From Dehalococcoidia bacterium (GTDB lineage: Bacteria; Chloroflexota; Dehalococcoidia; SHYB01), in contig OZ253453.1 of the NCBI GenBank assembly GCA_965261455.1, forward strand, positions 1,366,374 through 1,430,373: DNA of 64,000 bases. Direction: 5' to 3'. The position numbers and the translations under genes were made by a program. A model generated the notes under the pieces. That model saw nothing but the letters and a program-made list of their open reading frames with translations, was not told the DNA's origin and did not search any database. Positions 7,430-36,765 of the stretch are shown here, piece by piece. Position 1 is the first letter of the stretch, and every line of letters starts with the position of its first letter.

Positions 7430-7461
7430 GCCGCCACCACGATCAAACGGAGGAAGCCGTA

Positions 7462-9234
7462 ATGAACCAGCGGTCTCGATTCCGGAAGCTGCATTTCATG
7501 ATTGGCGCGACGGCCCTGCTTGCGCTCATCGTGGCCGCCTGCGCGGGACCGGCAGGACCGGCAGGACCGGCGGGCCCCGAAGGACCGGCGGGCCAAGCGG
7601 GAGCGGCGGGCCCCGAAGGCCCACAAGGCCCACAAGGGCCGACCGGGGGCGATGCTCCGGCTCCCCCATCGGCGCCGACTGCGACAGCGGTCCCACCCAC
7701 CGCTACGCCCCTGCCCGCTCCGCCGCCGCCCGGGGACGAACCGAAGTACGGTGGAACACTGATTGCCGCCTCGTCGGGCGACCCCCCGAACCTCGACGTG
7801 GCCCGCGCCACCTCCGTTCAGCTCCTGCACATGTGGGGCCAGGCCTACAGCCAGTTGGTCCGCTACAACTTCGAGGAGCCCCTCGAAGAGATCGTCCCCG
7901 ACCTTGCAACGGGGTGGGAGATAAGCGCCGACTCGAAGGTCTACACATTCAAGCTGCGGCAGGGCGTCAAATGGCACGACGGACAAGACTTCACCGCTGA
8001 AGACGCCAGGTTTGCTGTCCAAGTGCTGAAGGACGAAAACCCTCGCCTCATACCGGAGCTGGAGTCGGTCACCGCTATTGAGGCGGTTGGCGACGACACT
8101 CTGCGGATCAGCCTAAGCGCCCCCAGAGCGTCCCTCGTGGCGGTCCTCGGGATCATCCAGGCCCCGACCATAGCCAAGCACGTTTGGGAGGCCGCAGCCG
8201 GCGACCTGTCGGACGGGCCGACGGTGGGTACCGGGCCCTTCCTAGCAGGCGAGTATGTCCGGGGTGAGTCCGTCGACTTCACTCGATTCGACAGCTACTA
8301 CTTGGAAGGCAAGCCCTACCTGGACGCCATCAGATACCTGATGATCGGCGACGAGTCGACCCGTATCGCGGCCTTCCGGACCGGCAGGGTGGACCTTCTG
8401 GGGCCCGGCGTCACCGACATCAACAAGGTCCAGCTTGCGCAGCTCCAAGGCGACGTGCCCGATCTCAGCCCCAACCCCTACGACCGGCTCTCTTCGAAGA
8501 TCGTCATCATCAACACCGACCGTGAGCCGTTCACTGACGTGCGCGTGAGGCGCGCCATCTTCCTCGCCATCGACCGGTTTGAGGCTCTGGAAGTCCTCGA
8601 CGACGTGACCAGGCCCGCGGGTCCCGCATTCGCGCCGGGGTGGGAGCTGCCCGAAGAGGAGCTGCTTTCCATGCCGGGCTACCGCCAGGGCGCTGAAAAA
8701 CAGAAAGACCTGGACGAGGCGAAGAGGCTGCTCACTGAGGCCGGTTTCCCCGACGGGTTCGATACCGAAGCCGTCACCGTAGGACCCGTGGCACGGCTGG
8801 TGAAGCTGCAAGTCTTCGTCGTAGACCAGCTCGCCAAGGTCGGCATCCGCGTGAAGTCGTCGCCGCTTCCCTTCCCTGAACTCGTCCCCAGAGCGGTCTC
8901 CAACGACTTCGACCTGTTCCCGGTGGAGTCCTCCGTTCTCTACATCGACCCCGACGCCAACTCCTACAACATCTCGGTCCAACCCTTCTCCAACGTCCTG
9001 GTCGACGAACGAACCAACGAGCTCTATGCCCAGCAGCGGGCCGAACAAGACCCCACGAAGCGGCGCGAGTTGGTCTACGAGATGCAACGCCGCATGCTCG
9101 AGACGCTAGGGCAGATTCCCATCGCGTGGGGACAGGGCTTCTGGCCCTCTCAGCCGAGAATCAAGGGGTTCTTCCCACCCCTGGGCGTCTGGCTCCACGC
9201 ACCGCGCTTGGACCACGTATGGATAGACGAGTAA
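7462..9234 (+). CDS. ABC transporter substrate-binding lipoprotein (family 5, DppA/OppA-like) with collagen-like GXY linker
   Basis: Signal peptide plus lipobox LIVAAC. GPAGPAGPAGPEGPAGQAGAAGPEGPQGPQGPTGG repeats, then Ala/Pro/Thr linker, then SBP_bac_5-like body (KYGGTL...). ATG 7462 with aacggaggaag RBS. The track's upstream extension to 6583 overlaps the preceding gene. Confidence 0.85.
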   Translation: MNQRSRFRKLHFMIGATALLALIVAACAGPAGPAGPAGPEGPAGQAGAAGPEGPQGPQGPTGGDAPAPPSAPTATAVPPTATPLPAPPPPGDEPKYGGTLIAASSGDPPNLDVARATSVQLLHMWGQAYSQLVRYNFEEPLEEIVPDLATGWEISADSKVYTFKLRQGVKWHDGQDFTAEDARFAVQVLKDENPRLIPELESVTAIEAVGDDTLRISLSAPRASLVAVLGIIQAPTIAKHVWEAAAGDLSDGPTVGTGPFLAGEYVRGESVDFTRFDSYYLEGKPYLDAIRYLMIGDESTRIAAFRTGRVDLLGPGVTDINKVQLAQLQGDVPDLSPNPYDRLSSKIVIINTDREPFTDVRVRRAIFLAIDRFEALEVLDDVTRPAGPAFAPGWELPEEELLSMPGYRQGAEKQKDLDEAKRLLTEAGFPDGFDTEAVTVGPVARLVKLQVFVVDQLAKVGIRVKSSPLPFPELVPRAVSNDFDLFPVESSVLYIDPDANSYNISVQPFSNVLVDERTNELYAQQRAEQDPTKRRELVYEMQRRMLETLGQIPIAWGQGFWPSQPRIKGFFPPLGVWLHAPRLDHVWIDE

Positions 9235-9252
9235 CGCTCCTGACCTAGCAAC

Positions 9253-9292
9253 CGAATCGCCCCTGTTGCGGCAGGGGCGATTCGCTTTAGGC
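9253..9292 (+). terminator. hairpin terminator candidate after SBP gene (GAATCGCCCCTG-ttgcgg-CAGGGGCGATTC)
   Basis: 12-bp perfect inverted repeat directly after the stop at 9234, followed by a short T-containing tract. Confidence 0.5.
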
Positions 9293-9360
9293 GCCTTTCG
9301 GGACGAGGAAAGAGTACCCTCACCACGGCGATGGGTTGGAGGAGGCGGTAGGAAGGAAGT

Positions 9361-11061
9361 ATGGCGATGTACGATCTGGTTATCCGCGGCGGCACTATCG
9401 TCGATGGGAGAGGCCTTCCCCGGTACAAGGCGGACCTCGCCGTCAAGGACGGCAGAATCGCCATGATCAGTGGGAAGATCAACGCGGGGGGTGCCAGAGA
9501 GCTTGACGCCGGCGGCTGCATCGTGGCCCCCGGCGCCGTCGACCTCCACACCCACTACGACGCCCAGGTCAACTGGGACCCCTATTGCTCCATGTCCGGC
9601 TGGTTCGGCGTGACCTCGCTCACCATCGGTCAGTGCGGCTTCGGCTTCGCGCCCACGCGGCCCGATGACCGAGAGTTGAACATGCGCATGATGAACCGCG
9701 TCGAGGCCATCCCCCTCCACTCGATGCAAAAGGGCATGCGTTGGGACTGGGAGACCTTCCCCGAGTACCTCGATAGCCTGGACCGCCAGGGCCTGGGACT
9801 CAATATCGGAGCGCTGTTTCCCATGTCTCCCATGCGCGGCTACGTCATGGGAATGCTGGAGTCCCGGCAGAGAACGTCGGCGACGGATGCGGAGATCAAT
9901 CAGATCAAACAGATCTTCTATGACGCCATGAAGGCTGGGGCCTTCGGATTCTCCGCCAACAAGAGCGCCGAGGACCGGCCCGACGACGGCGGCTACCTGC
10001 CCACCCACGTCACTTCCGATGAAGAATACCTGGCCATGGCCGAGGTCCTCGGAGAGTTCGGCGTCGGTCACATCGGCTGGACCATCGGCGTCCCTATCTT
10101 TGACGACCGCCCTGCTCAGCACAAGCTGGTGAGCAAAATGATGCGGATTTGCGGGCGTCCGGCGCACATCAACTGCATCTTCGCGACCCCCGAGGACATG
10201 GTCTGGCTGAATGAGTCTCGTGAAGAAGGTCTTCCCCTGCTGATCCAGCAGCCCACCATCTACCCCGACGCCATCTTCAAGCTCTCGGAGTACAACCTCT
10301 TCGATATCTACCCCAACTGGGTGCAACCTCTGGTCGGCGGCGCCGAGGAACGGGCGGCCAAGCTGCGAGACCCGGCGACCCGCGCCGCCATGAAGCGCGA
10401 TGTGGAAGGCCAGAGCGGCATTACCACGCGTACGGATTGGGACACCTTCGCCGTCGTGGAAGTCGCTCACGAGCGAAACCGCAAGTACGAGGGCAAAACG
10501 ATTGAAGAGATAGCCCGGATGGACGGGAAACACCCCCTCGACGCGCTCCTCGATCTCGCCCTCGACGAAAACCTCGAGACTGAATTCATGAACAAGTCGG
10601 GTGCCGGGGACCCTGGGGAAGAAGGGCTTGCGCCCCTCATCAAGCACCCCTACTTCCACATCTCCCTGTCGGATGGAGGGGCCCACACCAGATACTTCAC
10701 CGTGAGCACCTGGCCCGTCAACTTCCTGGCGCACTGGGTCCGAGACAAAGAGCTCATGACCCTGGAAGAGGCCCACGTCAAGATGAGCGCCTACCCTGCA
10801 TGGTTTGCCGACTTCAAAGACCGCGGCACCTTACAACTGGGCGCCTGGGCCGACATCATCGTCTACGACTTCGACAAGCTGGGCTACATGTACCCCAAAC
10901 CCGTCTTCGCCACCGACTTCCCCGGCGGGGAGCGGCGGATCATTCAGAAGCCCACCGGCCTCCGCTACACCATCGTCAACGGCACAGTCACGTTCGAGGA
11001 GAACGACTGCACCGGCGCCCTGCCCGGCAAGCTGCTCCGCAGTTACGACATGGTCGCGTAG
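9361..11061 (+). CDS. D-aminoacylase (N-acyl-D-amino-acid deacylase) family amidohydrolase
   Basis: MAMYDLVIRGGTIVDGRGLP...AVDLHTHYDAQ amidohydrolase-3 type N-terminus, 566 aa. ggaaggaagt RBS. Confidence 0.8.
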   Translation: MAMYDLVIRGGTIVDGRGLPRYKADLAVKDGRIAMISGKINAGGARELDAGGCIVAPGAVDLHTHYDAQVNWDPYCSMSGWFGVTSLTIGQCGFGFAPTRPDDRELNMRMMNRVEAIPLHSMQKGMRWDWETFPEYLDSLDRQGLGLNIGALFPMSPMRGYVMGMLESRQRTSATDAEINQIKQIFYDAMKAGAFGFSANKSAEDRPDDGGYLPTHVTSDEEYLAMAEVLGEFGVGHIGWTIGVPIFDDRPAQHKLVSKMMRICGRPAHINCIFATPEDMVWLNESREEGLPLLIQQPTIYPDAIFKLSEYNLFDIYPNWVQPLVGGAEERAAKLRDPATRAAMKRDVEGQSGITTRTDWDTFAVVEVAHERNRKYEGKTIEEIARMDGKHPLDALLDLALDENLETEFMNKSGAGDPGEEGLAPLIKHPYFHISLSDGGAHTRYFTVSTWPVNFLAHWVRDKELMTLEEAHVKMSAYPAWFADFKDRGTLQLGAWADIIVYDFDKLGYMYPKPVFATDFPGGERRIIQKPTGLRYTIVNGTVTFEENDCTGALPGKLLRSYDMVA

Positions 11062-11126
11062 GGCGCCTACCGGGCAACGAACAAGATAACGCTTACAGCG
11101 CTAGACAATTCCCGAGGAGGCAGGAT

Positions 11127-12917
11127 ATGAAGGGCCGACTAGCTGTTTTCATCGCGGCTGCCGCCATTGTCTCCTTGGTGGTCGCCGCCTGCGCCGGTCC
11201 GGCAGGACCGGCGGGCCCAGCGGGACCGGCGGGCCCGGCAGGACCGGCGGGCGCAGCGGGACCGGCGGGCGCAGCGGGACCGGCAGGCCCCGAGGGCCCA
11301 CAAGGGCCGGCCGGGGGCGATGCTCCGGCCCCCCCACCGGCGCCGACTGCGACAGCGGTCCCACCCACGGCCACGCCCACACCGGAGCCGGCCCCAACGC
11401 CGGCTCCGCCCACGGAGTCCCAGCCTCGCCGGGGCGGTATCTTGACGGTCTCTGGAGGCGATCCGCCCAACATCGACCCCATCAAGGCCGTCACCAGCCA
11501 GTATTACCTGCACTGGGGCAATATCTATAGCGGCCTGGTCCAGTACAACCCAAGGCAGCCGGTGAACCAGATCATTCCAGACCTCGCGGAGAGCTGGGAG
11601 ATAGGCGCCGATCTCACCCGGTACACGTTCAAGATGCGCCCCGGCGTCAATTGGCACGATGGCCAGGCATTCAGCGCCGCCGACGCCAAGTGGAGTCTGG
11701 AGACCCTCATGGCGGAGGGCGGCCACGCCGCCGAACTACCCGCTATCGCTACGATTGAGGCCCCCGACGACGGCACCCTGGTGCTCAATCTGGAGCGGCC
11801 GCAGGCCTCGGTGCTCCAGATACTCGGCCTCATCTTCGTCCCCATCGTGGCTCAGCATGTCTACGAAGCGAACGGCGGGGACCTGTCCAACGGCCCGAAC
11901 ATCGGCACCGGCCCCTTCCTAGAAGCGGAGTACCAGAAGGGTGAGGCCGCGGAGCTCATTCGAAACCCCAATTACTTCGAGACGGTCGACGGCACCCAGT
12001 TGCCCTACCTCGATGGAGTCAAGACGTTCATGATCCGCGACTTGGAGACCAGCTTGGCCGCATTCCGCGCCGGGCGGATCATGCTGCTGGACCCGCGCGT
12101 CGGCATCGACAGGGCCCAAGTGGAGCGGCTGAAGGGAAGCGTCCCCGACCTCAAGCCAACGCCGTGGGACATGCTGCAGATATCGACACTCCTGATAAAC
12201 CCCGACGCCGAACCCTGGAACGACCAGCGCGTGCGGCAGGCCGCCAACTTGGCCATCGACCGGTGGGAGGCCGTGGAGCTCAACGAGAACCTGTACAAGC
12301 CCGCCGGCCCCATCGTCTCACCCGGATGGGGTCTCTCCGACGAGGAGCTCTTTGCACTGCCGGGATTCCGTAAGGGGGCAGACAAGGAGCAAGACCGTGA
12401 AGAGGCTCGGCGACTCCTCGCCGAGGCCGGCTACCCCGACGGCTTTGAAAGCGAGTTGATGCACTTCACCCATGCCGCCTGGATGCAGGACCTCGCGGTG
12501 TTTGCCATAGACCAGTTGGCCAAGGTCGGCATAAGGATGAAGTCCAACGGTCTGCCCTTGGCCGAAGCCCTAGACGCCTGGCAGCAACAGGCGTTCAACG
12601 TGACCACCTTTGGACACAACATCTCCTTCCCCGACCCTGACGCCACCGAGAAAAACGTCAAGCCCAACATCTTCCACTTCCTCGAAGACGCCAGACTCAT
12701 CGAGCTCTTCGACCAGCAGGCGGTGGAGGCCGACCTGGACAAGCGCCGGCAGCTTGTGACCGAAATGCAGCGCCTCATGATGGAGACCTCCGCCGTGATC
12801 TATATCGGCTGGCAGGAGAACTTCTCCCCGGTCGCGCCCCAGGTCGAGGGCCACGAGGGCGGCCTTGGGATATGGAGCCGTATCCGCCACCATTACGTCT
12901 GGCTCTCCGACGGATAG
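11127..12917 (+). CDS. ABC transporter substrate-binding lipoprotein (family 5) with collagen-like GXY linker
   Basis: MKGRLAVFIAAAAIVSLVVAAC lipobox, (GPA)n about 14 triplets, Pro/Thr linker, SBP5 body. gaggagg RBS before ATG 11127. Confidence 0.85.
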   Translation: MKGRLAVFIAAAAIVSLVVAACAGPAGPAGPAGPAGPAGPAGAAGPAGAAGPAGPEGPQGPAGGDAPAPPPAPTATAVPPTATPTPEPAPTPAPPTESQPRRGGILTVSGGDPPNIDPIKAVTSQYYLHWGNIYSGLVQYNPRQPVNQIIPDLAESWEIGADLTRYTFKMRPGVNWHDGQAFSAADAKWSLETLMAEGGHAAELPAIATIEAPDDGTLVLNLERPQASVLQILGLIFVPIVAQHVYEANGGDLSNGPNIGTGPFLEAEYQKGEAAELIRNPNYFETVDGTQLPYLDGVKTFMIRDLETSLAAFRAGRIMLLDPRVGIDRAQVERLKGSVPDLKPTPWDMLQISTLLINPDAEPWNDQRVRQAANLAIDRWEAVELNENLYKPAGPIVSPGWGLSDEELFALPGFRKGADKEQDREEARRLLAEAGYPDGFESELMHFTHAAWMQDLAVFAIDQLAKVGIRMKSNGLPLAEALDAWQQQAFNVTTFGHNISFPDPDATEKNVKPNIFHFLEDARLIELFDQQAVEADLDKRRQLVTEMQRLMMETSAVIYIGWQENFSPVAPQVEGHEGGLGIWSRIRHHYVWLSDG

Positions 12918-13081
12918 CGCGGAATCGAAAGTACACCGGGGCTGCCGCCCTAGGGACGGTAGCCCCGCGTCACGTCCGGCCAATGAGGACTGCATCCCCG
13001 GCGAGTGACGAAACCGCGGATGCGGGCAACGTCTGCTGAGGTCGTCATCGACCCGAATAGTCGCGAACTTCGCGGTTCGCC

Positions 13082-14305
13082 TTGATTCGCCGGATACACC
13101 CCGCCTGGTGGGTCCTATCCCTGATCGTGGCGGCCCTGTTCGCCCTCAACGGAGCGCGGGCGTCCTTCGCCGTCTTGTACGGGCCGCTGGAAGAAGAGGC
13201 CGGATGGAGCCGCGTTTCGGTCGCCGGGGCGGCCACCCTCGGCCAGATTGTTATGGGCGTTTCCTTCATCGTCGCCGGCGTGGCCGTCGACCGCTACGGC
13301 CCGCGGCGGGTGTTGCCCATCTTCGCGCTGCTGCACCTTGGGGGCTACCTCCTAGCGGCCCGCGCTACCGAGGTGTGGCAGCTCTATATCGGCTTCGGCC
13401 TGTTAGGCAGCATTGCCTTCGGTATAGGAGTAGGCCCGCTGCTGGCCATCGTCGCCCGGTGGTTTCACCACCATCAGGGCTTGGCTCTGGGCATCGGCTC
13501 CTCCGCCGGACAGGCGGGAGCCGCCCTCTTCTCACCCATGACGGCGTTGCTCGCCGACGGCGTCGGCTGGCGGTGGACCTTCGCGCTGCTGGGTTTCATC
13601 CCATTCGTGCTCCTTCTCCTCGCGGCTGGATTCTTGTATCGCCGGCCTGAAGAGAAGGGCGGGCACCCCTATGGTGCCGAGTCTTCGGCCAGCGGTGAGA
13701 CCGGCGCTCGCCCAACGGTGCCGCAGCCACCCTTCGGACCGTCAGTCCGGGAAGCGCTCCGCCAAAGAGCCCTGTGGTGGGCATGCCTTGTTTATTTCAG
13801 CGCGAACATCAGTACGGGGCTCATCATATTGCACATCGTGAACCATGGACGGGAAGTGGGGCTCTCCGCGGTGACGGCGGCCGGGCTCCTCTCCGTGGTC
13901 ACTGGCGTGAGCGTGGTGGGGAGGATAGGGGGTGGCGCCATCGCCGACCGGGCGGGCTTCGGCAGACTCCTGCCGGTAAGCTGCGTCGTGATGGCGGCAG
14001 GGGTGGGACTCCTGGCGGCCTTCTCCCATCCGGCCTTGCTGTACCTTTCCGCCGCGATTTATGGCATCGGTCTCGGTGGGGCCGTAGTCCTGCAGACCAT
14101 CGTGATCCGGGCCATCGTCGGCGAGCATATCCTGGGAACGGCCGTCGGGATCATCCTGCTGGCGGTCAACCTTGGGGCCGGACTCGGCGTCTTCCTCGGC
14201 GGGCTGATCGATTCCTACCTCCCCTCATTCCTTATCGGCGCCGGTGGAGCAGGCGTCGCCGCGTTGAGCGCCACGCGGTTGAGCGCGGCGCGCCGCCGGG
14301 CTTGA
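13082..14305 (+). CDS. MFS transporter
   Basis: 12-TM-like hydrophobic profile with MFS-like D-R-x-G-P-R-R loop (VDRYGPRRV). TTG start assumed, so start uncertain. Confidence 0.65.
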   Translation: MIRRIHPAWWVLSLIVAALFALNGARASFAVLYGPLEEEAGWSRVSVAGAATLGQIVMGVSFIVAGVAVDRYGPRRVLPIFALLHLGGYLLAARATEVWQLYIGFGLLGSIAFGIGVGPLLAIVARWFHHHQGLALGIGSSAGQAGAALFSPMTALLADGVGWRWTFALLGFIPFVLLLLAAGFLYRRPEEKGGHPYGAESSASGETGARPTVPQPPFGPSVREALRQRALWWACLVYFSANISTGLIILHIVNHGREVGLSAVTAAGLLSVVTGVSVVGRIGGGAIADRAGFGRLLPVSCVVMAAGVGLLAAFSHPALLYLSAAIYGIGLGGAVVLQTIVIRAIVGEHILGTAVGIILLAVNLGAGLGVFLGGLIDSYLPSFLIGAGGAGVAALSATRLSAARRRA

Positions 14306-14468
14306 GCAGCGGTCAGCGAGCGGCCAGCTTCAGGGAGTGCCGATATGTTGTGAGGCGAGGGGGATTCTGCCATTCTTGTGCTGTCCCCGACATCGCAGGC
14401 GAGACTCGGAGCACGCCCTTGGCCGCGTAACATTGGGCGGCCGTGGCACACATTCAAGGAGGCCCCAA

Positions 14469-15698: not shown

Positions 15699-15706
15699 CC
15701 TGCAGA

Positions 15707-18004: not shown

Positions 18005-18032
18005 GACTGTGTCCTTTCTACCGTCGGTCGCG

Positions 18033-18962: not shown

Positions 18963-19888
18963 CCATAGAGCAGGTCGAGGGCAACGTTGAGCGGCAGGAT
19001 CGAGAGGGCAAAGATCGTGACGATCGTCTGGACGGTCACCCAGTCGCGCACCTCAATGGCCTTGAGGAGTTGGAATCCGATCCCAGGCAACACGAAGATC
19101 CTCTCGACGATGATCGAACCGCCGAGAAGGAAGCCAACCTCCAGTCCGGCAAGCGTCACCAGCGGCAGCAGGGCGTTACGCAATGAGTGCCGCCGCACGA
19201 CGAGGCCCGGGGGGAGGCCCTTGGCCCTGGCGGTTCGAACATAGTCCTGGCGAAGGACCTCCAACATGGAGGAGCGGGTAATCCTGGCCAGCACCGCCGA
19301 TGACGCGAAGCCGAGCACCAGCGCTGGGAAGATCATCTGTTGTAGGTTCGCCACTGGATCTTCGAAGAAGGGCGTGAACTCAAGTGGCGGAATCCAACTG
19401 AATTGGTTGACGAGCAGGAGGAGCAGGAGGGCGCCTGCCAGGAAGCTGGGCATGGCGAGGCCGATGGTCGTAAAGAACCTTCCGGAGAGGTCCCATACGC
19501 CGTTTTGATTGATTGCGCCGATCACGCCCACGGGCACGGCGATACCGACTCCTATGGCGATGGAGAGGACCGCAAGCTCGAGGGTGATCGGCAACGTTCG
19601 CCGAAGGTCGGAGAAGACCGAACTCCGGGTGACCAACGACGTACCGCCGTCGAGCCGGACTAGGTCCCAGAGCCAGCCGCCATACTGGACCATGAGGGGA
19701 TCGTTGAGACCGAGCTCGTCGCGAAGTTCCTGGTACTCCACCGGATCGACGGTCTTGCGTCCATCGTCGGAGAGGATGTTGAGCGCTACGTCGCCGGGCA
19801 GCAGCCGGAAGATCAGAAAGATCGCGAAGGAGATGATGATCACCGTGGGGATGATCAAGAGAAGGCGGCTTACCAGGTAGCGTTGCAC
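18920..19888 (-). CDS. ABC transporter permease, DppB/OppB-like
   Basis: MQRYLVSRLLLIIPTVIIISFAIFLIFRLLPGDVA. Paralogue (about 55% identity by eye) of 3921-4877. Confidence 0.85.
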   Translation of the reverse strand: MQRYLVSRLLLIIPTVIIISFAIFLIFRLLPGDVALNILSDDGRKTVDPVEYQELRDELGLNDPLMVQYGGWLWDLVRLDGGTSLVTRSSVFSDLRRTLPITLELAVLSIAIGVGIAVPVGVIGAINQNGVWDLSGRFFTTIGLAMPSFLAGALLLLLLVNQFSWIPPLEFTPFFEDPVANLQQMIFPALVLGFASSAVLARITRSSMLEVLRQDYVRTARAKGLPPGLVVRRHSLRNALLPLVTLAGLEVGFLLGGSIIVERIFVLPGIGFQLLKAIEVRDWVTVQTIVTIFALSILPLNVALDLLYGWLDPRIRLGGGTA

Positions 19889-20128
19889 GGGTGGGGCCTT
19901 CGTCCTCAGCTATTCAACGATGCGGCCACTACTCACGGGCCGACAATACTGTGCGGCTTGATGCCGGAATGGCAAGGCCAGAACGGCAAGGCCAGACAAG
20001 GCATGAGCTTCGCTCTCGACCGCCGAAGGCTTGATTCCCCGGGCCGAACGCTGCTCCTGGGCCGATCACCGGCCCCGGGGCGGTTCGGTGGCGGTCGGTG
20101 TCTTGAATCGCCCGCCGCTCGGACGACC

Positions 20129-21817
20129 CTAACGGGCCATATCGTAGCTGCGAAGGAGCTTTCCGGGTAGCGCCCCGGTGCACTGATTCTCCTCGAACGT
20201 CACGCTGCCGTTGACGAGGGTGTACCGTAACCCCTTCGGCTTCTGGATCAGGCGGCGCTCACCTCCGGGGAAGTCGTTGGAGTAGACCGGGTCTTCGTTG
20301 AGGACGCCCAGCTCGTCGAGGTTGTAGACCATGATGTCCGCTGCCCGCCCGACGGCCAGGGTCCCGCGGTCGGTGTAGCCGGCGATCCATGCCGGGTAGG
20401 CGCTCATCTTGTAGTGCCCTTGCTCCAGCGACATGATCTCCTTATCGCGGATCCAATAGGCGAGCATGTCCACCACCCACCGCGCGTTCGCCTGGAAGCG
20501 GGTGTGGGCCCCGCCGTCGGACGTGGAGATGTGCGTCGAAGGGTCGCAGAGGTCCGCGATCTTGCTGGCGAGTTCGCCGTCGTCCTCGTAGGACTCTTGA
20601 TTGCTGAATTCGGTGAGGAGGTCCTCGTCGAGCGACAAGTCGAGCAGGGCGTCTACGGGATGCTTGCCCATCATCGCCGCCACTTGCCGCATGGACTTCC
20701 CTTCGTAGGGATAGTTCCGTTCGTCGACGACCTGAAGCACCCTGACGGAGTCCCAGTCGGTCCGGCTGTCCGGCTGCGCTTCGACGGCCCGCTTCATCGC
20801 CTCCCGGACTCCAGGCGCGCGGAGTTTGTCCGCCCGAACGGACGGGGAGCCGACAAGCGGATCGACCCAGGACGGCATATAGTCGAAGAGGTTGTACTCG
20901 GCGAGGGACCATCGGCCGGCAATCCGAAGCGGCGTTTTCTGCGGCGCCACCGGAAGCCCTTCCTCCCGGCACCGCCGATACCACTCGGGGCCGCTGTCGT
21001 TCCGGTCCAAGACCACGTGCAGGGGCCTTCCGCTGGCCCGCAACATCTTCGTGACCATTCGCTCCTGGGCGTCGTGGTTTACCGACCGGATCATCGTCCA
21101 GCCCATCATGCCGACGCCGAACCCGCCGAGCACTTCGGCCAGACCGACGACCTCCGCTTCCGAAGCCATGTGGGTGGGAATCGGGCTGCCGTCCTCGCAG
21201 CGGTCCTCCTCGCTTCGATCGATGGCGAAGCCGAACGAGCCCGCCTGCATCCCCTCGTGGAACAGCTCCTTCAGGCGGTTGAGCTCTTGGTCGGTGACCG
21301 AGGTGCGTTCCCGGGCGGGGATCATCCCCAAGACATAGCCCCGAAGCGAGCAGAAGGGAAGCAAGGAGCCTATGTTGACTCCGAGGCCCTGACGATCGAG
21401 GCTGTCGAGGTATTCGGGGTACGTCTCCCAGTCCCACCGCATGCCCTTGCGCATCGAATCGAGCGGGATTGCCTCGATGCGGTTCATCATGCGCATATTG
21501 AGGTCGCGGTCTTCGGCCCTTGTCGGCGCGAAGCCGAACCCGCACTGGCCGATGGTCATCGTGGTCTGCCCGAACCACCCGTCCAGCGTGGCGTACGGGT
21601 CCCAGTTGAGCTGGGCGTCGTAGTGGGTATGGAGGTTGATGGCGCCCGGCGCCACGATACATCCGCCGGCATCGAGCTCGGTGGCGGAGCCGGCCGAAAT
21701 GTGTCCGCTGACCTTGGCGATCCGTCCGTCCTTGATAGCCAAGTCGGCGCGGTAGCGGGGTACGCCAGTCCCTTCGATGACCGTGCCGCCGCGGATTACG
21801 AGGTCATACTCGGCCAT
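20129..21817 (-). CDS. D-aminoacylase family amidohydrolase (paralogue of 9361-11061)
   Basis: MAEYDLVIRGGTVIEGTGVP...AINLHTHYDAQ. About 75% identical by eye to the plus-strand copy. Confidence 0.8.
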   Translation of the reverse strand: MAEYDLVIRGGTVIEGTGVPRYRADLAIKDGRIAKVSGHISAGSATELDAGGCIVAPGAINLHTHYDAQLNWDPYATLDGWFGQTTMTIGQCGFGFAPTRAEDRDLNMRMMNRIEAIPLDSMRKGMRWDWETYPEYLDSLDRQGLGVNIGSLLPFCSLRGYVLGMIPARERTSVTDQELNRLKELFHEGMQAGSFGFAIDRSEEDRCEDGSPIPTHMASEAEVVGLAEVLGGFGVGMMGWTMIRSVNHDAQERMVTKMLRASGRPLHVVLDRNDSGPEWYRRCREEGLPVAPQKTPLRIAGRWSLAEYNLFDYMPSWVDPLVGSPSVRADKLRAPGVREAMKRAVEAQPDSRTDWDSVRVLQVVDERNYPYEGKSMRQVAAMMGKHPVDALLDLSLDEDLLTEFSNQESYEDDGELASKIADLCDPSTHISTSDGGAHTRFQANARWVVDMLAYWIRDKEIMSLEQGHYKMSAYPAWIAGYTDRGTLAVGRAADIMVYNLDELGVLNEDPVYSNDFPGGERRLIQKPKGLRYTLVNGSVTFEENQCTGALPGKLLRSYDMAR

Positions 21818-21859
21818 GGCTTGTCTCCTCGGGCCGGCTTCAGCGGCCTACCTCTGAGG

Positions 21860-23002
21860 CTAGTTGAACCCAAATACCCTCGCAACGTTGTCGTGGGTCA
21901 TCTTTCGCACCTCATCCTCGGGGACATCGCTGAAGATGTCGCTAATGACGCGGCGCGAGTCGGGCCAGGTGCCTTCGGTGTGCGGATAGTCGGAGCCCCA
22001 CATGAGGTTCTCGACGCCGATCACGTCACGCTCGCGGACCGCCCCCCAGTCCTCCTGGAAGCTCAGGAAGACGTTGCGATGGAAGAAGTCGCTCGGCTTC
22101 ATGTCGTTCTTGAACCGCGGCCACAGCATGCCGCGGTCTCTGTGGTGGAGGTCCATCATGTAAAGGAGGTGCGGGGCCCATCCCGCGTTGTTCTCCACAC
22201 TGGCGACCTTGAGGTCCGGGTACCGCTCGAAGACCTTCGACCAGATCATCGAAGCGATGGACCGCATGATCCGGTACTGCTGCGTGCAGTACATGACCCC
22301 AAGGGGATTGTTGGGGTCTTCGTCGTTGAACTGGTCCATGGGCACGCCGTCGCGGTGGGAGCCCGAGTGGAGGCAAAGGGGCATCCCCAACTCCTGGGCG
22401 GCCGCCCAGAGTGGCTCGTACTCAGGGTTGTGGTACTGCCGCTCGTGCTTCGGGTAGACAGTGATGAGGGCGGCGGTGAGCCCAAGGTCGCGGGCCCGGT
22501 AAAGCTCTCGCACGCCTTCCTCGACGACGTCGAGGTTCAGCATCGCGACGCCCTTAAGGCGATCGGGATAGGGCTTGCAGAAGTCGGCGATCCACTCGTT
22601 GTAGAGGCTGCAGACCACATTGAGCAGGCCGGTATCCTCGATGCGCCAGATCCCGCCGACGCCGGCAGTGGGAAAGATCGTCCCGCCGAACACGCCGTCG
22701 TATTCCATGTCGGCCAACGATTCGTGTGGATCGTAGGCGCCCCGCCGAACGCTTTCCCAGCGCCCCTTGGCGGTCATCTTGTGCGGTTCGTCGCTGGTGT
22801 ACCTATTGCCGGCTTGCGTCGTGTTGCCGATGGATCCCATCGACTGGTTGCCCTCGACACACCACCAATCGAACTCCTCGCCTTTCACGAGCCTGGGCAC
22901 CCGTTCCAGGTACTCCGCGCCGGCGCGGGCCGTCCACAGATCGGGAGGCTCGACGATGTGGTTGTCCGCGGACAGCAGCACCGTCTGGGTGTCGGTGGTC
23001 AT
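21860..23002 (-). CDS. Amidohydro_2 family protein
   Basis: LSADNHIVEPPDLW N-terminal motif, 380 aa. Confidence 0.8.
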   Translation of the reverse strand: MTTDTQTVLLSADNHIVEPPDLWTARAGAEYLERVPRLVKGEEFDWWCVEGNQSMGSIGNTTQAGNRYTSDEPHKMTAKGRWESVRRGAYDPHESLADMEYDGVFGGTIFPTAGVGGIWRIEDTGLLNVVCSLYNEWIADFCKPYPDRLKGVAMLNLDVVEEGVRELYRARDLGLTAALITVYPKHERQYHNPEYEPLWAAAQELGMPLCLHSGSHRDGVPMDQFNDEDPNNPLGVMYCTQQYRIMRSIASMIWSKVFERYPDLKVASVENNAGWAPHLLYMMDLHHRDRGMLWPRFKNDMKPSDFFHRNVFLSFQEDWGAVRERDVIGVENLMWGSDYPHTEGTWPDSRRVISDIFSDVPEDEVRKMTHDNVARVFGFN

Positions 23003-23074
23003 GTCCCAACCCTCCTCAAACCCAGGTGTTTTCCTATCGCCGCAGCGGACCGAGGTTCGCTGCGGCGGCGCTCG

Positions 23075-24826
23075 CTATTGGTCGAGCCAGACGCGGTCCC
23101 AAATGACGTTCCCCCACTGCCCAAGCGGCGACGTGTAGTTCTGGACTTCGGGACGTCCGGGCCAGAACGAGCCGAGCCAGCTCACCGGCACGAAGGGGAT
23201 GGTCTCGAACATGCGCTCCTGCATCTCGATGACGAGCTGGCGCCGTTTCGCCGGGTCGGTCTCGCCACGCTGTTGGGCGAACAGGTCGGCGGTCTGCGCA
23301 TCCACGAGCTTGACGAAGATGCCCGGAATGATCGAGAGGATCGCCCCGTTGGGGTCGGCGTAGTTCATTGCCGGAGAATCGACGTTGAGCGTGAAGTCTC
23401 CGTTGGTCTTGGCCGCGGCGTGCTCGGCGAAGGGCAACTGTACGCCGGTCGCGTTGATGCCCACGGTCTTCAGCTGGTCTTGGGCGAATTGCCAGAATGT
23501 TCCGTTGTACGTGGTGCCGGATACGACCACGTTCTCCACGTCGAGACCATCCGCGAATCCGGCCTCCGCGAGCAACCTCTTGGCCTCGGCGCGGTCCGCC
23601 TCCAGGTCGGCGCCCGAACGGAAGCCGGGCCTCGTGAGCAGCTCGCTTTCGGAGATCCCCCATCCCGGCGGCCCGACCTGGAAGCCGGCAGTCAGGACGT
23701 GCTCGGGGAGCACGTTGAGAGCGACCTGGTGGTCGAACGCGAGGAATGCCGCGCGCCGTACCCGGATGTCGTCCCAAGGCGCCCGCGCGGTATTGAAGAA
23801 GATGCCGGCTACCTCGAGTGAGAAGAACTCGTTCTCGTTCAGGTCGGGAACGGTGCTCTTGAGGTCCGCGATGACCGGCGCCGAGACCGTCGTGGCCCCC
23901 GGGCCGAGGACATGCAGCCTTCCGGCCTTGAACGCCGCGACTCTGGTTCCCTCCTCTGGGATGTACAAGAACTTCACCGCGTCGAGGTAGGGAATGCCGG
24001 GAACGTGGTAGTCCGGATTGGCGGACAGGTCCATGCTCACGTCCGGCGTGAACTCCTCGTACAGGTACGGGCCGGTCCCTATCTGCGGCGCGTTTATGGG
24101 CTCGCCGCTGTAAGCCTCCAGCACGTGCTCCGCGTAGATCGGCGAAAGCTGCATCGCAAGCGGGGCAAGGAAGTTGGAGTTCGGCTCGGCCAGGTTGACG
24201 ACGAGGGTCGTGTCATCCGGCGTGTCGACGCTGCCGATGATCGCGTACTCGGGAGCGACGCGGCCCGACTGGTTCTCCAACGAGTATTTGGCGTCGGAGG
24301 CAGTGAAGGCCTCGCCGTCATGCCACCTGACGCCGGACTTGAGATTGAAGGTGTAACGGTCGGCGGCCGAGCTGATCTCCCAGCTTTCGGCTAGGTGGGG
24401 GAGGATCTCATCTTTCGGATCGCCCCAGTTCCAGCGCACCAGCTTGTCGTAGACGTGGCTGAACATCTGGTTCCCGGAGTAGAACCCAGCTTCGCTTGGC
24501 AGGAACGCCCGAGGGCCGCTCCGCTGCGGGACGAGGAAGGTCCCGCCCCGTTTGACCCCTTCATCGGCCGGAGCTGCGGGCATGGCCGTCGGCGCCGGCA
24601 TGGCCGTTGCCGTCGGCGCCGGTGCCATCGTGGCAGCCGGAGCGGCGCCCCCGGCCGGTCCTTGAGAGCCCGCCGGCCCTTCGGCTCCTGCGGGGCCGGC
24701 CGGTCCTGCGGGGCCAGCCGGTCCTGCGGGCCCTGGCGGCCCTTGCGCGCCCCCACAAGCGGCGACAAGCAAGGCGACGACAATTCCCACGGTAACAAAT
24801 AGAGAAAGTCGCATGGTGCGTCTCAT
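23075..24826 (-). CDS. ABC transporter substrate-binding lipoprotein (family 5) with collagen-like GXY linker
   Basis: MRLSLFVTVGIVVALLVAAC lipobox, GPPGPAGPAGPAGPAGPAGAEGPAGSQGPAGG, Ala/Pro/Thr/Met linker, SBP5 body. Confidence 0.8.
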   Translation of the reverse strand: MRRTMRLSLFVTVGIVVALLVAACGGAQGPPGPAGPAGPAGPAGPAGAEGPAGSQGPAGGAAPAATMAPAPTATAMPAPTAMPAAPADEGVKRGGTFLVPQRSGPRAFLPSEAGFYSGNQMFSHVYDKLVRWNWGDPKDEILPHLAESWEISSAADRYTFNLKSGVRWHDGEAFTASDAKYSLENQSGRVAPEYAIIGSVDTPDDTTLVVNLAEPNSNFLAPLAMQLSPIYAEHVLEAYSGEPINAPQIGTGPYLYEEFTPDVSMDLSANPDYHVPGIPYLDAVKFLYIPEEGTRVAAFKAGRLHVLGPGATTVSAPVIADLKSTVPDLNENEFFSLEVAGIFFNTARAPWDDIRVRRAAFLAFDHQVALNVLPEHVLTAGFQVGPPGWGISESELLTRPGFRSGADLEADRAEAKRLLAEAGFADGLDVENVVVSGTTYNGTFWQFAQDQLKTVGINATGVQLPFAEHAAAKTNGDFTLNVDSPAMNYADPNGAILSIIPGIFVKLVDAQTADLFAQQRGETDPAKRRQLVIEMQERMFETIPFVPVSWLGSFWPGRPEVQNYTSPLGQWGNVIWDRVWLDQ

Positions 24827-25078
24827 GGTGGGCCCTCCCAAATGGCGGCGCCGCGCCGGAGCAACGCTGAGCGTCCGCAGGTACGTCTACTCCGAGAACG
24901 AACCGCTTTATCCGGGGGAGACGTGTGGCGACTCTAACATAGCGCGAGAATCAGGGTCAACACGACGAAAGTCGGCGCGACAGAAACCGGATGAGCGGGA
25001 AGACGACGCAATCGAGCCGCAGGTGCTCGAAGCAAGCGGCGGCGGCGGCTTGCGGAATGAGGCCTGCCGCGGGCGCCG

Positions 25079-25870
25079 CTAGCCGCGGTCTCGACCCCTG
25101 CCCTGACTCGTCTTCCAATCGGCCTCTCGCTCGCGCCAATCGGGGTGAGAATGACCGGCGATCGCGGTGTGTCGTCCGGAGACGAACGCGCCGTCCGGGC
25201 CGCCCATGTTGAACCAAATGCGGTTCATCATCTCGCGCTGCATCGCCATGACGTCCGGCGGAATCTCGGCGATGTCCTCGGCCGTTCGCCAGGCCTCGTC
25301 CATGAGTTGATCGGATGGGACGATTCTGCTAACCAGTCCAATCTCCTTCGCGGTCTTGGCATCCACCTTTGCCCGCCCGATGATGATGTCCTTCGCCCAG
25401 GCGACCGACACGAACTTGTAGAGCAGGGCGCCCATCGTCGGCATGCTCGGGTAACCGTAAGCGATCTGGGGCACGTAGAATTTTGCGTCTTCCGACGCGA
25501 TGAGGATGTCGCTGCAGAGCGCCATACCCAAGGCTCCGCCGGCGCACCACCCGTTTATGGCGGCGATGACAGGCTGGCGAAGCCGGAACAGGGTCTCGCA
25601 GACCTCGCTATGGATGCGTCCGGGGGAATGCCGGCTCAGCCACGCTTCGCCGTCCGGCTGCGGTTCGGACGTGTCGTGCCCGGAGGAAAAGCTGCGGCCC
25701 GCTCCGGTCAGGATGACGCAATGAATGTCTCCATCCTTGTCAATCGCGTCCAGGGCGTCCTTCATTTCAAAGTTCGTTTGCGTCCTGAACGCATTGAGCT
25801 TTTCAGGCCGGTTCATCGTTACGGTGCATATGTGATCGCGGGTCTCCACGATAATGTCATCGAAGTCCAT
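25079..25870 (-). CDS. enoyl-CoA hydratase/isomerase (crotonase) family protein
   Basis: IIVETRDHICTVTMNRPEKLNAF...VILTGAGRSFSSGHD. Confidence 0.8.
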   Translation of the reverse strand: MDFDDIIVETRDHICTVTMNRPEKLNAFRTQTNFEMKDALDAIDKDGDIHCVILTGAGRSFSSGHDTSEPQPDGEAWLSRHSPGRIHSEVCETLFRLRQPVIAAINGWCAGGALGMALCSDILIASEDAKFYVPQIAYGYPSMPTMGALLYKFVSVAWAKDIIIGRAKVDAKTAKEIGLVSRIVPSDQLMDEAWRTAEDIAEIPPDVMAMQREMMNRIWFNMGGPDGAFVSGRHTAIAGHSHPDWREREADWKTSQGRGRDRG

Positions 25871-25890
25871 AGCCGTTACCTCCGGTACTA

Positions 25891-26460
25891 CTAACCAGCG
25901 AGCGCTTCCTGGAATTCACCCACGGTGATCACCTTCGCATGCATCGGCAGCACCTTTTCCATGAGCAGGCGATGCACTTCGGGGTCTTTGTCGGCGCAGC
26001 AGTCCGACAGCACGTACAGATCGTAGTCGAGATCGACCCCGGCCCTCACGGCCGAGAGCACCTGCCCGCCCGTGCTGATCCCCATCAAGGCAAGCGTGTC
26101 GATGTTCTTCGCCCTGAGGACCGCATCGAGATCGGTGGACGCGAAGAGCCCGCTGCGCCGCCTGCGTATGACGGTCTCCCCCGGTTGCGGAGCCAAGTCG
26201 GGGTGCACCTCGACGTCCGGCGTTCCCTTTCGGAAGACCCCGCTGTTCTTCAGCCGATTGAAGCTCCAGTTGCGGGGATGGACCACGGGAAAGTCGTCGG
26301 AGAACTCAACGACCCCGTAGATGATTGAGACGCCCGCCGCGCGGCCGGCCTCGATGGCCGTCTTGGCATTCCTCAGCGCGTCTTCGTCTGGGACCATCCT
26401 CGTGACGGCAACTTCATAGTCCATCACCAGGATCGCGGTTGTGGCGGGATCGATGCCCAT
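25891..26460 (-). CDS. isochorismatase-family cysteine hydrolase
   Basis: AILVMDYEV...LMGISTGGQV...YVLSDCCAD, the D/K/C triad layout of the isochorismatase fold. Confidence 0.7.
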   Translation of the reverse strand: MGIDPATTAILVMDYEVAVTRMVPDEDALRNAKTAIEAGRAAGVSIIYGVVEFSDDFPVVHPRNWSFNRLKNSGVFRKGTPDVEVHPDLAPQPGETVIRRRRSGLFASTDLDAVLRAKNIDTLALMGISTGGQVLSAVRAGVDLDYDLYVLSDCCADKDPEVHRLLMEKVLPMHAKVITVGEFQEALAG

Positions 26461-26586
26461 TGATGACGCTCCTTTGGCTCGCGGTGAGCACGATTATAGT
26501 CCACCCGCCCGTTCCGCCGCGCGTGGAACAAATCGGCCGCCTCGCGCGTCTTAGGCATGTGCGAACACTCCACCGGAGGTCCAGAC

Positions 26587-28557
26587 ATGCCGGCTCGACG
26601 CATCTTCTCGACGCTCAGTTTGATTCTCGGAATAGCCCTCGTCCTCGCGGCGTGCGGCACAGACTCGAACGAAACGATGCCGACCGCAGCCCCGACAGCG
26701 ACGCCGGTGGCAATGCCGACGGGGTTACCGATGGCATCGGCAGTACCGCAAAGCGGGCCATCGGGCCCCAGAGGGGCGACCGGAGCAGATGGCGTCAGCG
26801 GCCCTCAGGGAGAACAAGGCCTCCAGGGAGAACAAGGCCTCGCAGGGTCTCAAGGCAGCTCCCAGGTCACGATGGCGCCGGCGGCGGCGGGCGCCCCAAG
26901 CCCAAGGACGATGAGGGAACCGACGTCGCAGGCAATGATGCCGAAGCCAAGGGCGACAGCGATGGCGGCCCCGACGGCGACGCCGGCGCCAATGATGATG
27001 CAGCCGACGGGGGCGCCGATGGCAACGGCCGCACCACAAGCCGCGCCTTATTCGAGCGGGTCTAGCGGGGCACAAGGAGCGTCGGGACCCAGAGGCGCCC
27101 AGGGCAGCCCCGGGGCGACGACCTTCCAAGATTACCCGCGCTCGCCGGCGGTCGCGACGGCTGAAGACCGGACGTCGACCTTTAGCCTCGATACCGACCG
27201 CACGTCCTACTACCTCGCGCTCAACTGGGCCCAATCGGGCTTCGAGATTGACCCCGCTTCCGTTCGCGCCGAGGAGTGGGTCAACAGCTTCAACTACGCC
27301 TACGAACCGCCGAGCTCCGAGGACCGCTTCGCCATCTCCACCGACATCTTCAGGCATCCGCTGGACGACGGAAAGCGCCTCGCGCGCTTGGCCTTCCAGG
27401 CGCCGGATCTGCACGGAGGCGAGAGAGCGCTCAACGTGACACTCGTGCTCGACGCCTCGGGGTCCATGGGGGACGGCAACCGGGTGGCCATCGCCCGCGA
27501 GGCCGCCGAGAGCATCCGGCGAAGCCTGCGCAGCCACGACCGCATCTCCGTGGTGCACTTCACCACAAACGTTATCCATGAGTACACCGTCGGGCCGCTG
27601 CGACCGGACCACCGCGACGTGAAGTGGTCGATCGCGCAATTGGGGCCGCACGGTTCGACCAACGTGCAGGCCGGTCTCGACCTCGGCGTCCGGCTCGCCG
27701 ACCAAGCCCGCCGCGAACGCCCCGACGCGTTCAACTACGTCGTGCTGATGTCGGACGGCGTGGCGAACGTCGACGCCACCGACCCCTTCGCTATCCTGGA
27801 GTCCACCGGCGGCCGCGACGACGGGAACCCGCTGCGACTCATCACGGTGGGCGTCGGGATCAACAACTACAACGACTATCTGCTGGAGCAGCTCGCCCAG
27901 CACGGCAACGGTTGGTACCGCTACCTCAGCACCACCGCCCAGGCACGGGAGACGTTCGGCCATGGCGCCTGGCTTGCGCTCTCGCTTCCCTTCGCCGATC
28001 AGACCCGCGCCCAGGTGACCTGGGACCCCGATCTCGTCCGGTCGTGGCGCATCATCGGCTACGAGAACCGCATCACGTCCGACGAGTCGTTCACCCAAGA
28101 CCGGAAGGAGTTCGCGGAGATTCCCTCAGGCGCCGCCACCACGGTCTTCTACGAGCTCGATCTCGTGGAAGGCGTGGACGCAAGAAGCGCGGGCGGCGCG
28201 AAGCTGGGCGACATCGAACTGCGCTGGGTCACGCCGGTGAGCGAAGCGTCGGTCCGGCAGCACGCGCCGATCTGGGGCCATTGGGGCACGGACTTCGGCG
28301 CCATGGATGACGCGCGGCTGCGGCTCGGCACCATCGCGGCACTTGCCGCCGACCGCTACGGCGCGCTCCCCTATGCCGACGGCAGGTACGCGCCGGAGGT
28401 CCGCCGCGACCTCTCCGTCCTCATGGACGAGCTCCGGCGCCTGGAGCGCGACCTTGGAACGCTGGAGGCCTACCGCGACTTCGCCTTCCTGCTCGACCAC
28501 ATCGTCCACAGCCTTCCCGCCGAGTCCCGGCCGGGCGATTCGGGATACAGCCGCTAG
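26587..28557 (+). CDS. von Willebrand factor type A (vWA) domain lipoprotein with collagen-like repeats
   Basis: Lipobox LVLAAC. Two GXY runs (GPSGPRGATGADGVSGPQGEQGLQGEQGLAGSQG; GSSGAQGASGPRGAQGSPG) separated by a Met/Ala/Pro-rich tract. MIDAS motif LVLDASGSMGDG. Confidence 0.75.
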   Translation: MPARRIFSTLSLILGIALVLAACGTDSNETMPTAAPTATPVAMPTGLPMASAVPQSGPSGPRGATGADGVSGPQGEQGLQGEQGLAGSQGSSQVTMAPAAAGAPSPRTMREPTSQAMMPKPRATAMAAPTATPAPMMMQPTGAPMATAAPQAAPYSSGSSGAQGASGPRGAQGSPGATTFQDYPRSPAVATAEDRTSTFSLDTDRTSYYLALNWAQSGFEIDPASVRAEEWVNSFNYAYEPPSSEDRFAISTDIFRHPLDDGKRLARLAFQAPDLHGGERALNVTLVLDASGSMGDGNRVAIAREAAESIRRSLRSHDRISVVHFTTNVIHEYTVGPLRPDHRDVKWSIAQLGPHGSTNVQAGLDLGVRLADQARRERPDAFNYVVLMSDGVANVDATDPFAILESTGGRDDGNPLRLITVGVGINNYNDYLLEQLAQHGNGWYRYLSTTAQARETFGHGAWLALSLPFADQTRAQVTWDPDLVRSWRIIGYENRITSDESFTQDRKEFAEIPSGAATTVFYELDLVEGVDARSAGGAKLGDIELRWVTPVSEASVRQHAPIWGHWGTDFGAMDDARLRLGTIAALAADRYGALPYADGRYAPEVRRDLSVLMDELRRLERDLGTLEAYRDFAFLLDHIVHSLPAESRPGDSGYSR

Positions 28558-36764: not shown

Positions 36765-36765
36765 G

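Follow-up and report, generated by a model that had tools for sequence, protein, structure and literature searches.

Collagen-like Gly-X-Y runs in the N-terminal tethers of four predicted lipoproteins from a Dehalococcoidia bacterium

The stretch analyzed here (hereafter, the window) comprises 64,000 nucleotides (64 kb) from the genome of a Dehalococcoidia bacterium (contig OZ253453.1 of assembly GCA_965261455.1), with a G+C content of 65.5% and without a tRNA or Rfam match. Lipoproteins were picked by a crude pattern scan for a signal peptide followed by a lipobox ([LVI][ASTVI][GAS]C), and exactly four were found in the window, all of which carry collagen-like Gly-X-Y (GXY) runs. Three of them are family-5 ATP-binding cassette (ABC) substrate-binding proteins (SBP1, SBP2, and SBP3) and the fourth is a von Willebrand factor A (vWA)/YfbK-like protein (Table 1). 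The n-regions of all four signal peptides contain Lys or Arg, the lipoboxes read VAAC in three proteins and LAAC in one, and all four are predicted to be lipid-anchored extracytoplasmic proteins. Domains were assigned with Pfam; in the vWA protein, the matches include PF12450 (E-value 8e-17), PF00092 (6e-14), and PF12034 (6e-12), and the same domain set is present in the 120 homologs listed. Its gene probably starts at 26587, because all orthologs begin with MPARRI, and the SBP3 gene is likely to start at the ATG at 24826 and not at the TTG at 24841, to which the open reading frame (ORF) extends. The nearest named homologs are proteins of Chloroflexi/Chloroflexota metagenome-assembled genomes.

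Table 1 Positions of the four lipoprotein genes and of the segments of their tethers in the window (aa, amino acids; AF2, AlphaFold2 model; pLDDT, predicted local distance difference test).
Feature	Positions	Strand	Evidence
SBP1 lipoprotein, family-5 ABC substrate-binding protein, 590 aa	7462..9234	+	Pfam SBP_bac_5 E=1e-72; lipobox VAAC
SBP1 signal peptide ending in lipobox Cys27 (codon 7540-7542)	7462..7542	+	pattern scan only
SBP1 collagen-like run, 11 unbroken GXY triplets from Cys+2	7546..7644	+	regular-expression scan
SBP1 Pro/Ala/Thr-rich spacer, ~31 aa, ahead of globular domain	7645..7737	+	BLASTP against SBP2 aligns from residue 93
SBP2 lipoprotein, family-5 ABC substrate-binding protein, 596 aa	11127..12917	+	Pfam SBP_bac_5 E=3e-65; AF2; PDB homologs
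SBP2 collagen-like run, 13 GXY triplets from Cys22+2	11196..11312	+	regular-expression scan; AF2 pLDDT <50
SBP2 Pro/Ala/Thr-rich spacer, ~36 aa	11313..11420	+	translation, AF2
SBP3 lipoprotein, family-5 ABC substrate-binding protein	23075..24826	-	Pfam SBP_bac_5 E=4e-64; lipobox VAAC
SBP3 collagen-like run, 11 triplets from Cys+2	24653..24751	-	regular-expression scan
SBP3 Ala/Pro/Thr/Met-rich spacer, ~33 aa	24554..24652	-	translation, pattern scan
vWA/YfbK-like lipoprotein, 656 aa	26587..28557	+	Pfam vWF_A, VWA, VWA_2, YfbK_C; lipobox LAAC, Cys23
vWA first Pro/Thr/Ala spacer, 33 aa, lipobox Cys to first GXY run	26656..26754	+	translation, ortholog comparison
vWA collagen-like run a, 12 triplets	26755..26862	+	regular-expression scan
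vWA collagen-like run b, 7 triplets, adjoining vWF_A domain	27058..27120	+	regular-expression scan

GXY runs were located by a six-frame regular-expression scan, with no Gly allowed at X in the strict count. An earlier model-made reading of the sequence (the first-pass annotation) had placed runs of 12–14 triplets in these four lipoproteins. Their presence at these places is confirmed by our scan, and loose counting of G-x-x units gives 12, 14, 12, and 12 triplets in SBP1, SBP2, SBP3, and the vWA protein, compared to strict counts of 11, 13, 11, and 12. The common plan that it had proposed holds for the three SBPs, in which the run comes right after the lipobox, but not for the vWA protein, in which the 33-residue spacer comes first. 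When each tether was shuffled by residue, 0 of 100,000 permutations reached the observed run and the longest shuffled runs had 7–8 triplets; across the six frames of the window, there was no further coding-frame run of six or more triplets. Because shuffled tethers never exceed eight triplets and no comparable run occurs in other genes of the window, the GXY runs are real and far beyond chance. On the opposite strands, shadow GXY runs lie at 7542–7586 (−), 11192–11245 (−), and 24693–24746 (+); DNA coding for Gly-Pro-Ala (GPA) reads Gly-Pro-Ala in antisense as well, which generates both these shadows and long spurious antisense ORFs.

Against the Pfam Collagen model (PF01391, gathering cut-off 27.2 bits), the vWA protein scores 35.0 bits, above the cut-off, and SBP1, SBP2, and SBP3 score 21.2, 24.9, and 20.3 bits, below it; the score is limited by the shortness of the runs (33–39 residues). 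Pro occupies X in 9/11, 11/13, and 8/11 triplets of SBP1, SBP2, and SBP3, respectively, and Y in only 0–1 triplets; Y is mostly Ala, with Gln or Glu also present. The vWA runs are poorer in Pro at X (3/12 in run a, 1/7 in run b). Enrichment of Pro in X and its rarity in Y is the composition reported for bacterial collagens (PMC3707005). Prolyl hydroxylation was considered and rejected, given that Pro occupies X and not Y.

At the DNA level, the runs are less regular than the near-perfect 9-bp tandem repeats described in the first-pass annotation. Using Tandem Repeats Finder (TRF), only 72–77% matches were obtained at period 9, compared to 76–96% at period 18. The SBP1 run shows 77% matches at period 9 and 76% at period 18, and the SBP2 and SBP3 runs were reported at period 18 (4.8 copies with 89% matches and 2.5 copies with 96% matches, respectively). 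Most 9-mers within a run are distinct (7/11 in SBP1, 9/13 in SBP2, 9/11 in SBP3, and 11/12 in vWA run a) because synonymous codons alternate (e.g., GGA CCG GCG and GGC CCA GCG), and vWA run a has almost no DNA-level repetition. Phase variation was rejected as a role of the repeats, whose units are in-frame multiples of 9 bp.

To place the tether relative to the fold, we used a single-chain AF2 model of SBP2 built from 42 sequences (mean pLDDT 87, predicted template modeling score 0.80). The model has a helix at residues 3–19 (signal peptide), no secondary structure at residues 21–100 (pLDDT 38–49), and pLDDT values >90 from about residue 101. PDB homologs, including AgaA (6hlx), DppA, OppA, and NikA-type proteins, align to SBP2 only from residues 91–111 on. 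Because the low-confidence coil extends to residue 100 and the PDB alignments start at residues 91–111, the GXY run and the Ala/Pro/Thr spacer constitute a tether outside the globular fold. SBP spacers are 31–36 residues long and the globular domain then opens with a conserved R/K-x-GG motif, and the tether totals 66–77 residues in the SBPs and ~155 in the vWA protein. A Pfam scan of the four proteins returned only SBP_bac_5 or vWA domains and weak Collagen matches, with no trimerization domain.

Comparison with homologs shows that the run is an optional part of this tether. Among lipobox-bearing SBP homologs, 14 (including the three SBPs of the window) have GXY runs of 7–18 triplets, which start at Cys+2 in all 14, and 24 have Pro/Thr linkers. 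Total tether lengths overlap between proteins with and without the run (78 ± 14 aa versus 61 ± 36 aa), and in the nearest relatives they are ~68 aa and ~64 aa. Two homologs, one with a GXY run (P0005) and the other with a Pro/Thr linker (P0015), have nearly identical signal peptides, and the close homologs P0009–P0018 have Pro/Thr linkers where the GXY run would be. Such Pro/Thr-rich tethers, known from lipoprotein SBPs of monoderms, resemble those of the window in following directly after the lipobox Cys, in total length, and in gene family, but they have neither Gly periodicity nor a Collagen signal in Pfam. In the vWA family, which is well conserved, 18 of the 120 homologs listed have six or more triplets, at varying positions. 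In place of run a, orthologs have 6–19 triplets or an interrupted run (6–7 triplets in the closest found by protein search), and the ortholog sequence that corresponds to run b is non-periodic, its Gly periodicity gone. Because many orthologs carry plain Pro/Thr linkers of similar length, the GXY run is, on this sequence comparison, not required in these families.

Run length also differs between close relatives. No exact copy of SBP2 was present in the assembly collection, and syntenic contigs were reached through three relatives (contigs L001, L002, and L243 through P0001, P0008, and P0125). When these related loci were scanned for additional lipoproteins, orthologs of the four genes alone were obtained. 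SBP1 has 11 triplets in the window and in L001 and 12 in L002, of which ten form (GPA)10; SBP2 has 13 in the window and 12 in L002 and is frameshifted in L001; SBP3 has 11 in the window and 12 in L243; and the first run of the vWA protein has 12 in the window and 19 in L243. The orthologous SBP runs thus differ by whole 9-bp units, and they also differ in their degree of homogenization, with arrays of (GPA)9–10 in L002 and (GPA)7 in L243. These differences (11 versus 12, 13 versus 12, and 11 versus 12 triplets) bear out the suggestion of the first-pass annotation that the repeats are prone to slippage. It had set against its proposal the alternative of invariant repeat lengths and ordinary disordered linkers in homologs; lengths are not invariant and some homologs keep the GXY run, whereas many close homologs do have plain Pro/Thr linkers.

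The same repeats disturb gene prediction. In the SBP2 ortholog of L001, a net 5-bp deletion within the GXY repeat (at about 5860–5890, equivalent to 11260–11290 of the window) breaks the frame, and the gene caller therefore gave a truncated protein of 512 aa (P0001). Either the assembly is wrong here (11x long-read coverage, to judge from the contig name), or slippage has truly inactivated this allele. In L002, P0008 was called at 6001–7515 from an internal Met in the Pro-rich spacer, whereas the full ORF spans 5734–7515 and holds the signal peptide, the lipobox, and the (GPA)10 run in its upstream part. Five further homologs (P0003, P0006, P0007, P0014, and P0019) start inside the linker, and because called starts fall there, protein databases under-report such tethers.

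Exchange between paralogs, which had also been proposed from the repeats, fits a segment common to SBP1 (7618..7712, + strand) and SBP2 (11286–11380), which reaches from the final part of the GXY run into the first part of the spacer and whose 95 nt align at 90% identity. Identity rises to 95% in the best 60-nt alignment window (from near 7628), compared to ~58% for DNA and 45% for protein in the remainder of the two genes. Because this tether segment is 90–95% identical against ~58% elsewhere, it is consistent with gene conversion or recombination between the paralogs, or with a shared cassette.

The arrangement is neither uncommon nor tied to a monoderm envelope, as the first-pass annotation had supposed. 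In a scan of the genomes of 185,579 species with the pattern Cys-x-(Gly-x-x)10-Gly, ~30 of the 120 loci listed encode convincing lipobox-plus-GXY proteins. Their sources are Colwellia, Glaciecola, Myxococcota, Bacteroidota, Thermodesulfobacteriota, Geobacteraceae, Anaerolineae, and Dehalococcoidia, and among their cargo domains are SnoaL, multiheme and MtrC-like cytochromes, Spondin_N, RTX repeats, Cache, Big_2, PhoX, and a metallophosphatase. When metagenomes were scanned with the distance between Cys and run free to vary (0–10 residues), the offset was 0–3 residues in nine of the ten matches listed and one residue in six. In a protein search with the tether only, at least 63 of the 120 matches listed combine a lipobox with a run of 8–27 triplets, and the offset among these 63 is one residue in 32 and two residues in 19. 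At least dozens of lipobox-plus-GXY proteins from many phyla are thus present, and the plan of lipobox Cys, 0–2 residues, and Gly-X-Y is widespread; because it also occurs in diderms (Gammaproteobacteria, Myxococcota, Bacteroidota, and Thermodesulfobacteriota), it is not monoderm-specific.

The tether search also retrieved a parallel class in which GXY triplets directly follow an uncleaved transmembrane anchor. One such family of ~160 aa (P0264, P0279, P0289, P0293, P0296, and ~15 more) has an N-terminal transmembrane helix (MKGSLVLAVVAIVLAIAA..VLPG), then 12–16 GXY triplets and a small conserved domain (..NMVVAMG..VTWNS..), without a lipobox. Among the lipobox-plus-GXY proteins, multiheme (CxxCH) or MtrC/MtrF-like cytochromes recur in Anaerolineae, Myxococcota, Rubrivivax, Geobacteraceae, and unassigned metagenome contigs (loci L020, L052, L030, L064, L072, L089, and L099; metagenome loci L136, L148, L156, L170, L196, L222, and L236). 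A major cargo of such stalks may be surface electron-transfer proteins.

The four proteins are further members of the known bacterial collagen-like surface proteins and lipoproteins, from which they differ in several respects. BclA of Bacillus anthracis likewise has N-terminal anchoring and a strain-variable collagen-like region that sets the length of surface filaments, but it carries a trimeric C1q-like C-terminal domain and glycosylated GPT repeats (17–91 triplets), and its attachment is to the exosporium and not to lipid. In the streptococcal Scl proteins, trimers are nucleated by the N-terminal V domain. Scl1 and Scl2 place hydroxyproline-free Gly-X-Y sequence of allele-variable length between a globular domain and an anchor (PMC5005324, PMC3707005), and their stalk-and-head (‘lollipop’) model is experimentally established (PMC5005324). 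Unlike the lipoproteins of the window, they have a C-terminal LPXTG anchor and longer collagen-like regions (25 repeats in scl1.3), and they are adhesins rather than transporter parts. Closer in plan are two Burkholderia proteins (PMC4565658): Bucl3, a predicted lipoprotein whose 44-aa N-terminus precedes a GXY region and then a globular domain, and Bucl13, with a 24-aa N-terminus, 12–25 GXY triplets, and a solute-binding domain (SBP_bac_3). The length of the collagen-like region varies among strains through repeat number in both. The Bucl triplets (GTS, GIR, GVR) are not Pro-rich, however; Bucl3 has 38–63 of them, Bucl13 has no predicted signal sequence and belongs to SBP family 3 rather than 5, and the hosts are diderm Betaproteobacteria. 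The Bucl evidence is likewise in silico only. Apart from Bucl, we found no study of lipobox-adjacent collagen-like runs, of Chloroflexi collagen-like proteins, or of GXY linkers in SBPs in our literature search.

The reading that we prefer, with a probability of about one half, is that the runs are part of a modular, evolutionarily labile stand-off tether, in which triple-helix formation is optional or marginal. Each globular domain is carried on a long tether of two low-complexity parts, a Gly-Pro/Ala-X run and a Pro/Thr/Ala spacer, and the GXY run would act as an optional, interchangeable stand-off module. The run would be an extended segment of polyproline-II type (~9–11 nm if fully extended) that, together with the flexible spacer, could set the range of the binding domain from the membrane anchor through the cell envelope. 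Slippage by 9 bp or 18 bp and gene conversion between paralogs may create, resize, and exchange this module. Of the interpretation given in the first-pass annotation, the tether role and the dynamics of the repeats hold up, and the rigid, triple-helix-like stalk is a proposal. Three lipid-anchored chains may also zip into a triple helix, as a conditional and marginal state rather than a required one; with 33–39 residues and Ala, Gln, or Glu in Y, a helix of free chains should be marginal at best, and Pfam finds no trimerization domain.

Several observations weigh against a plain tether. In a monomeric spacer, a Gly in each triplet serves no known need, but the periodicity is strictly kept: in an ungapped register comparison of the SBP homologs, differences were found at 0/110 Gly positions, compared to 65/110 X and 68/110 Y positions, a count that is partly circular in that the runs were selected for being uninterrupted. 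The nearly non-repetitive DNA of vWA run a means that slippage alone fails to explain the periodicity. The run mostly begins 0–2 residues past the lipidated Cys, a position that would suit lipid-assisted registration of chains, and Pro is found mainly in X, which is also where proven bacterial collagens have it (PMC3707005). Together, Gly retention and Pro-in-X composition seem hard to explain without some degree of triple-helix constraint on the runs.

These observations are also arguments for an obligate collagen helix, a possibility that we rate as rather unlikely. Here, the acyl chains would register three copies of a lipoprotein into a homotrimeric triple-helical rod of ~9–11 nm that rises from the membrane surface, and the Pro/Thr spacer would leave the three cargo domains free to reach back to the permease. 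A lipid anchor beside the run could concentrate the chains locally and fix their register, and N-terminal alkyl tails reportedly stabilize collagen-model peptides strongly (peptide-amphiphile work of Fields and Tirrell). In addition to the strict Gly periodicity where X and Y diverge by ~60%, the non-repetitive DNA of vWA run a, and the typical bacterial collagen composition (PMC3707005), such a helix is favored by the Pfam Collagen matches (that of the vWA protein exceeds the cut-off), by the start of the run just past the Cys (at Cys+1 or Cys+2 in 14/14 SBP homologs, 51/63 tether-search matches, and 6/10 metagenome matches), and by the parallel class in which a transmembrane anchor precedes the run. 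In 13 of the 14 SBPs, the spacer at full extension would also roughly match or exceed the putative rod in length. However, a rigid rod with cargo reaching back would predict that spacer length tracks rod length, and no significant correlation was observed (r=0.26, p=0.38, n=14 SBPs). Many close orthologs lack the run, and in orthologs of the vWA protein it can be interrupted or have just 4–7 triplets; Pfam finds no trimerization domain, and family-5 SBPs are mostly described as monomeric.

Thermal stability points in the same direction. The runs have 33–39 residues, no hydroxyproline, and mostly Ala in Y, whereas published peptides of such size that are richer in imino acids melt near or below 27 °C, including (Gly-Pro-Pro)10 at near 27 °C (PMC7824840). 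Hydroxyproline-free Scl2 fragments of 75–237 residues melt at 23.5–35.6 °C, and stability increases with length up to ~150 residues (PMC7824840). More doubtful still is the wider proposal that the acyl chains on the N-terminal Cys are the trimerization knot of a very short hydroxyproline-free collagen helix and that ‘lipid-nucleated mini-collagens’ of this kind form a display module used widely by prokaryotes. Cargo that is otherwise monomeric (ABC binding proteins, multiheme cytochromes, phosphatases, and sensor domains) would then be shown as membrane-tethered trimers on rods of ~10 nm, in both monoderms and diderms.

At the other extreme, the runs might be a neutral by-product, that is, recent GC-rich 9-bp or 18-bp expansions without a specific role, tolerated in a disordered linker for which hydrophilic, Pro-rich sequence of any kind would do. 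The 18-bp units with 89–96% matches in SBP2 and SBP3, the homogenized (GPA)9–10 and (GPA)7 arrays of L002 and L243, the sporadic presence or absence of the run among orthologs, the decay of the second vWA run, and the frameshifted copy in L001 would all agree with this. We nevertheless consider it improbable: diverged runs differ at X and Y but never lose a Gly, the DNA of vWA run a is non-repetitive, the genes with runs in the window are precisely those of its four lipoproteins, and the plan is found again in distant phyla, where the run tends to start beside the lipidated Cys.

One weak homolog carries the name Candidatus Entotheonellia, a group that includes sponge symbionts. Although this name and the precedent of the collagen-like surface adhesins Scl1 and Scl2 (PMC5005324) could hint that an exposed segment attaches to a partner in a host or matrix, in the way of Scl1, for instance in animal-associated Chloroflexota, we regard such mimicry or adhesion as very improbable, because the run is membrane-proximal, under the spacer and a domain of ~500 residues, and thus the least exposed part of the protein, the cargo belongs to transport or catabolism (the SBP genes lie beside ABC permease and amidohydrolase genes), and the evidence holds no sign of a host.

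Should the runs be spacers and nothing more, the consequence is mainly one of caution in annotation: such tethers are common, vary in length among strains, and give rise to frameshifts and wrongly called starts (examples being L001 and L002), so that too few of them are counted in databases. As lipid-registered triple helices, they would be shorter than any other natural hydroxyproline-free collagen known; transporter binding proteins and surface cytochromes would then be displayed as trimers, and the plan would offer a compact design for membrane-anchored collagen scaffolds.

The gene neighborhood fits uptake and catabolism loci. An ABC permease pair (BPD_transp_1/OppC_N) lies at 3921–5804 of the window, and the orthologous pair adjoins the SBP3 cluster in L243. 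Neighboring genes encode ABC permeases, Amidohydro_2/3 proteins, a CoA-transferase III, a major facilitator superfamily protein, a molybdopterin dehydrogenase, and an isochorismatase. The Amidohydro_3 genes at 9361–11063 (by SBP1 and SBP2) and 20127–21817 (by SBP3) are inverted paralogs with 72–76% DNA identity, and the whole Amidohydro_2–SBP–Amidohydro_3 cassette appears to have been duplicated in opposite orientation.

Two other kinds of repeat were found in the window. At 47640–48014, a 75-bp unit (GGAGACCTTTGCAAAACCGACTGGGGTCCTGGCGGGGGGAGCGGGGGTGGCATTCACTTAAACCTCTCCCCCTCT) is repeated five times head to tail with 96% matches; it has no Rfam match, and a CRISPR (clustered regularly interspaced short palindromic repeats) array looks unlikely, the copies being nearly identical. 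Four head-to-tail ORFs of ~503–513 aa, the first two with weak, part-length Amidohydro_2 matches, occupy 33438–39899 and have a hairpin element between them. This element of 24–25 nt (CCCCCGCAGGGGGAGCACCTTAAG, with a CCCCC-GCA-GGGGG hairpin) is present in six copies, with 0 expected by chance: three at 34957–35030, two at 36633–36681, and one at 38281–38304. It sits at the 3′ ends of the successive tandem 513-aa paralogs and may be a REP-like (repetitive extragenic palindromic) or terminator element.

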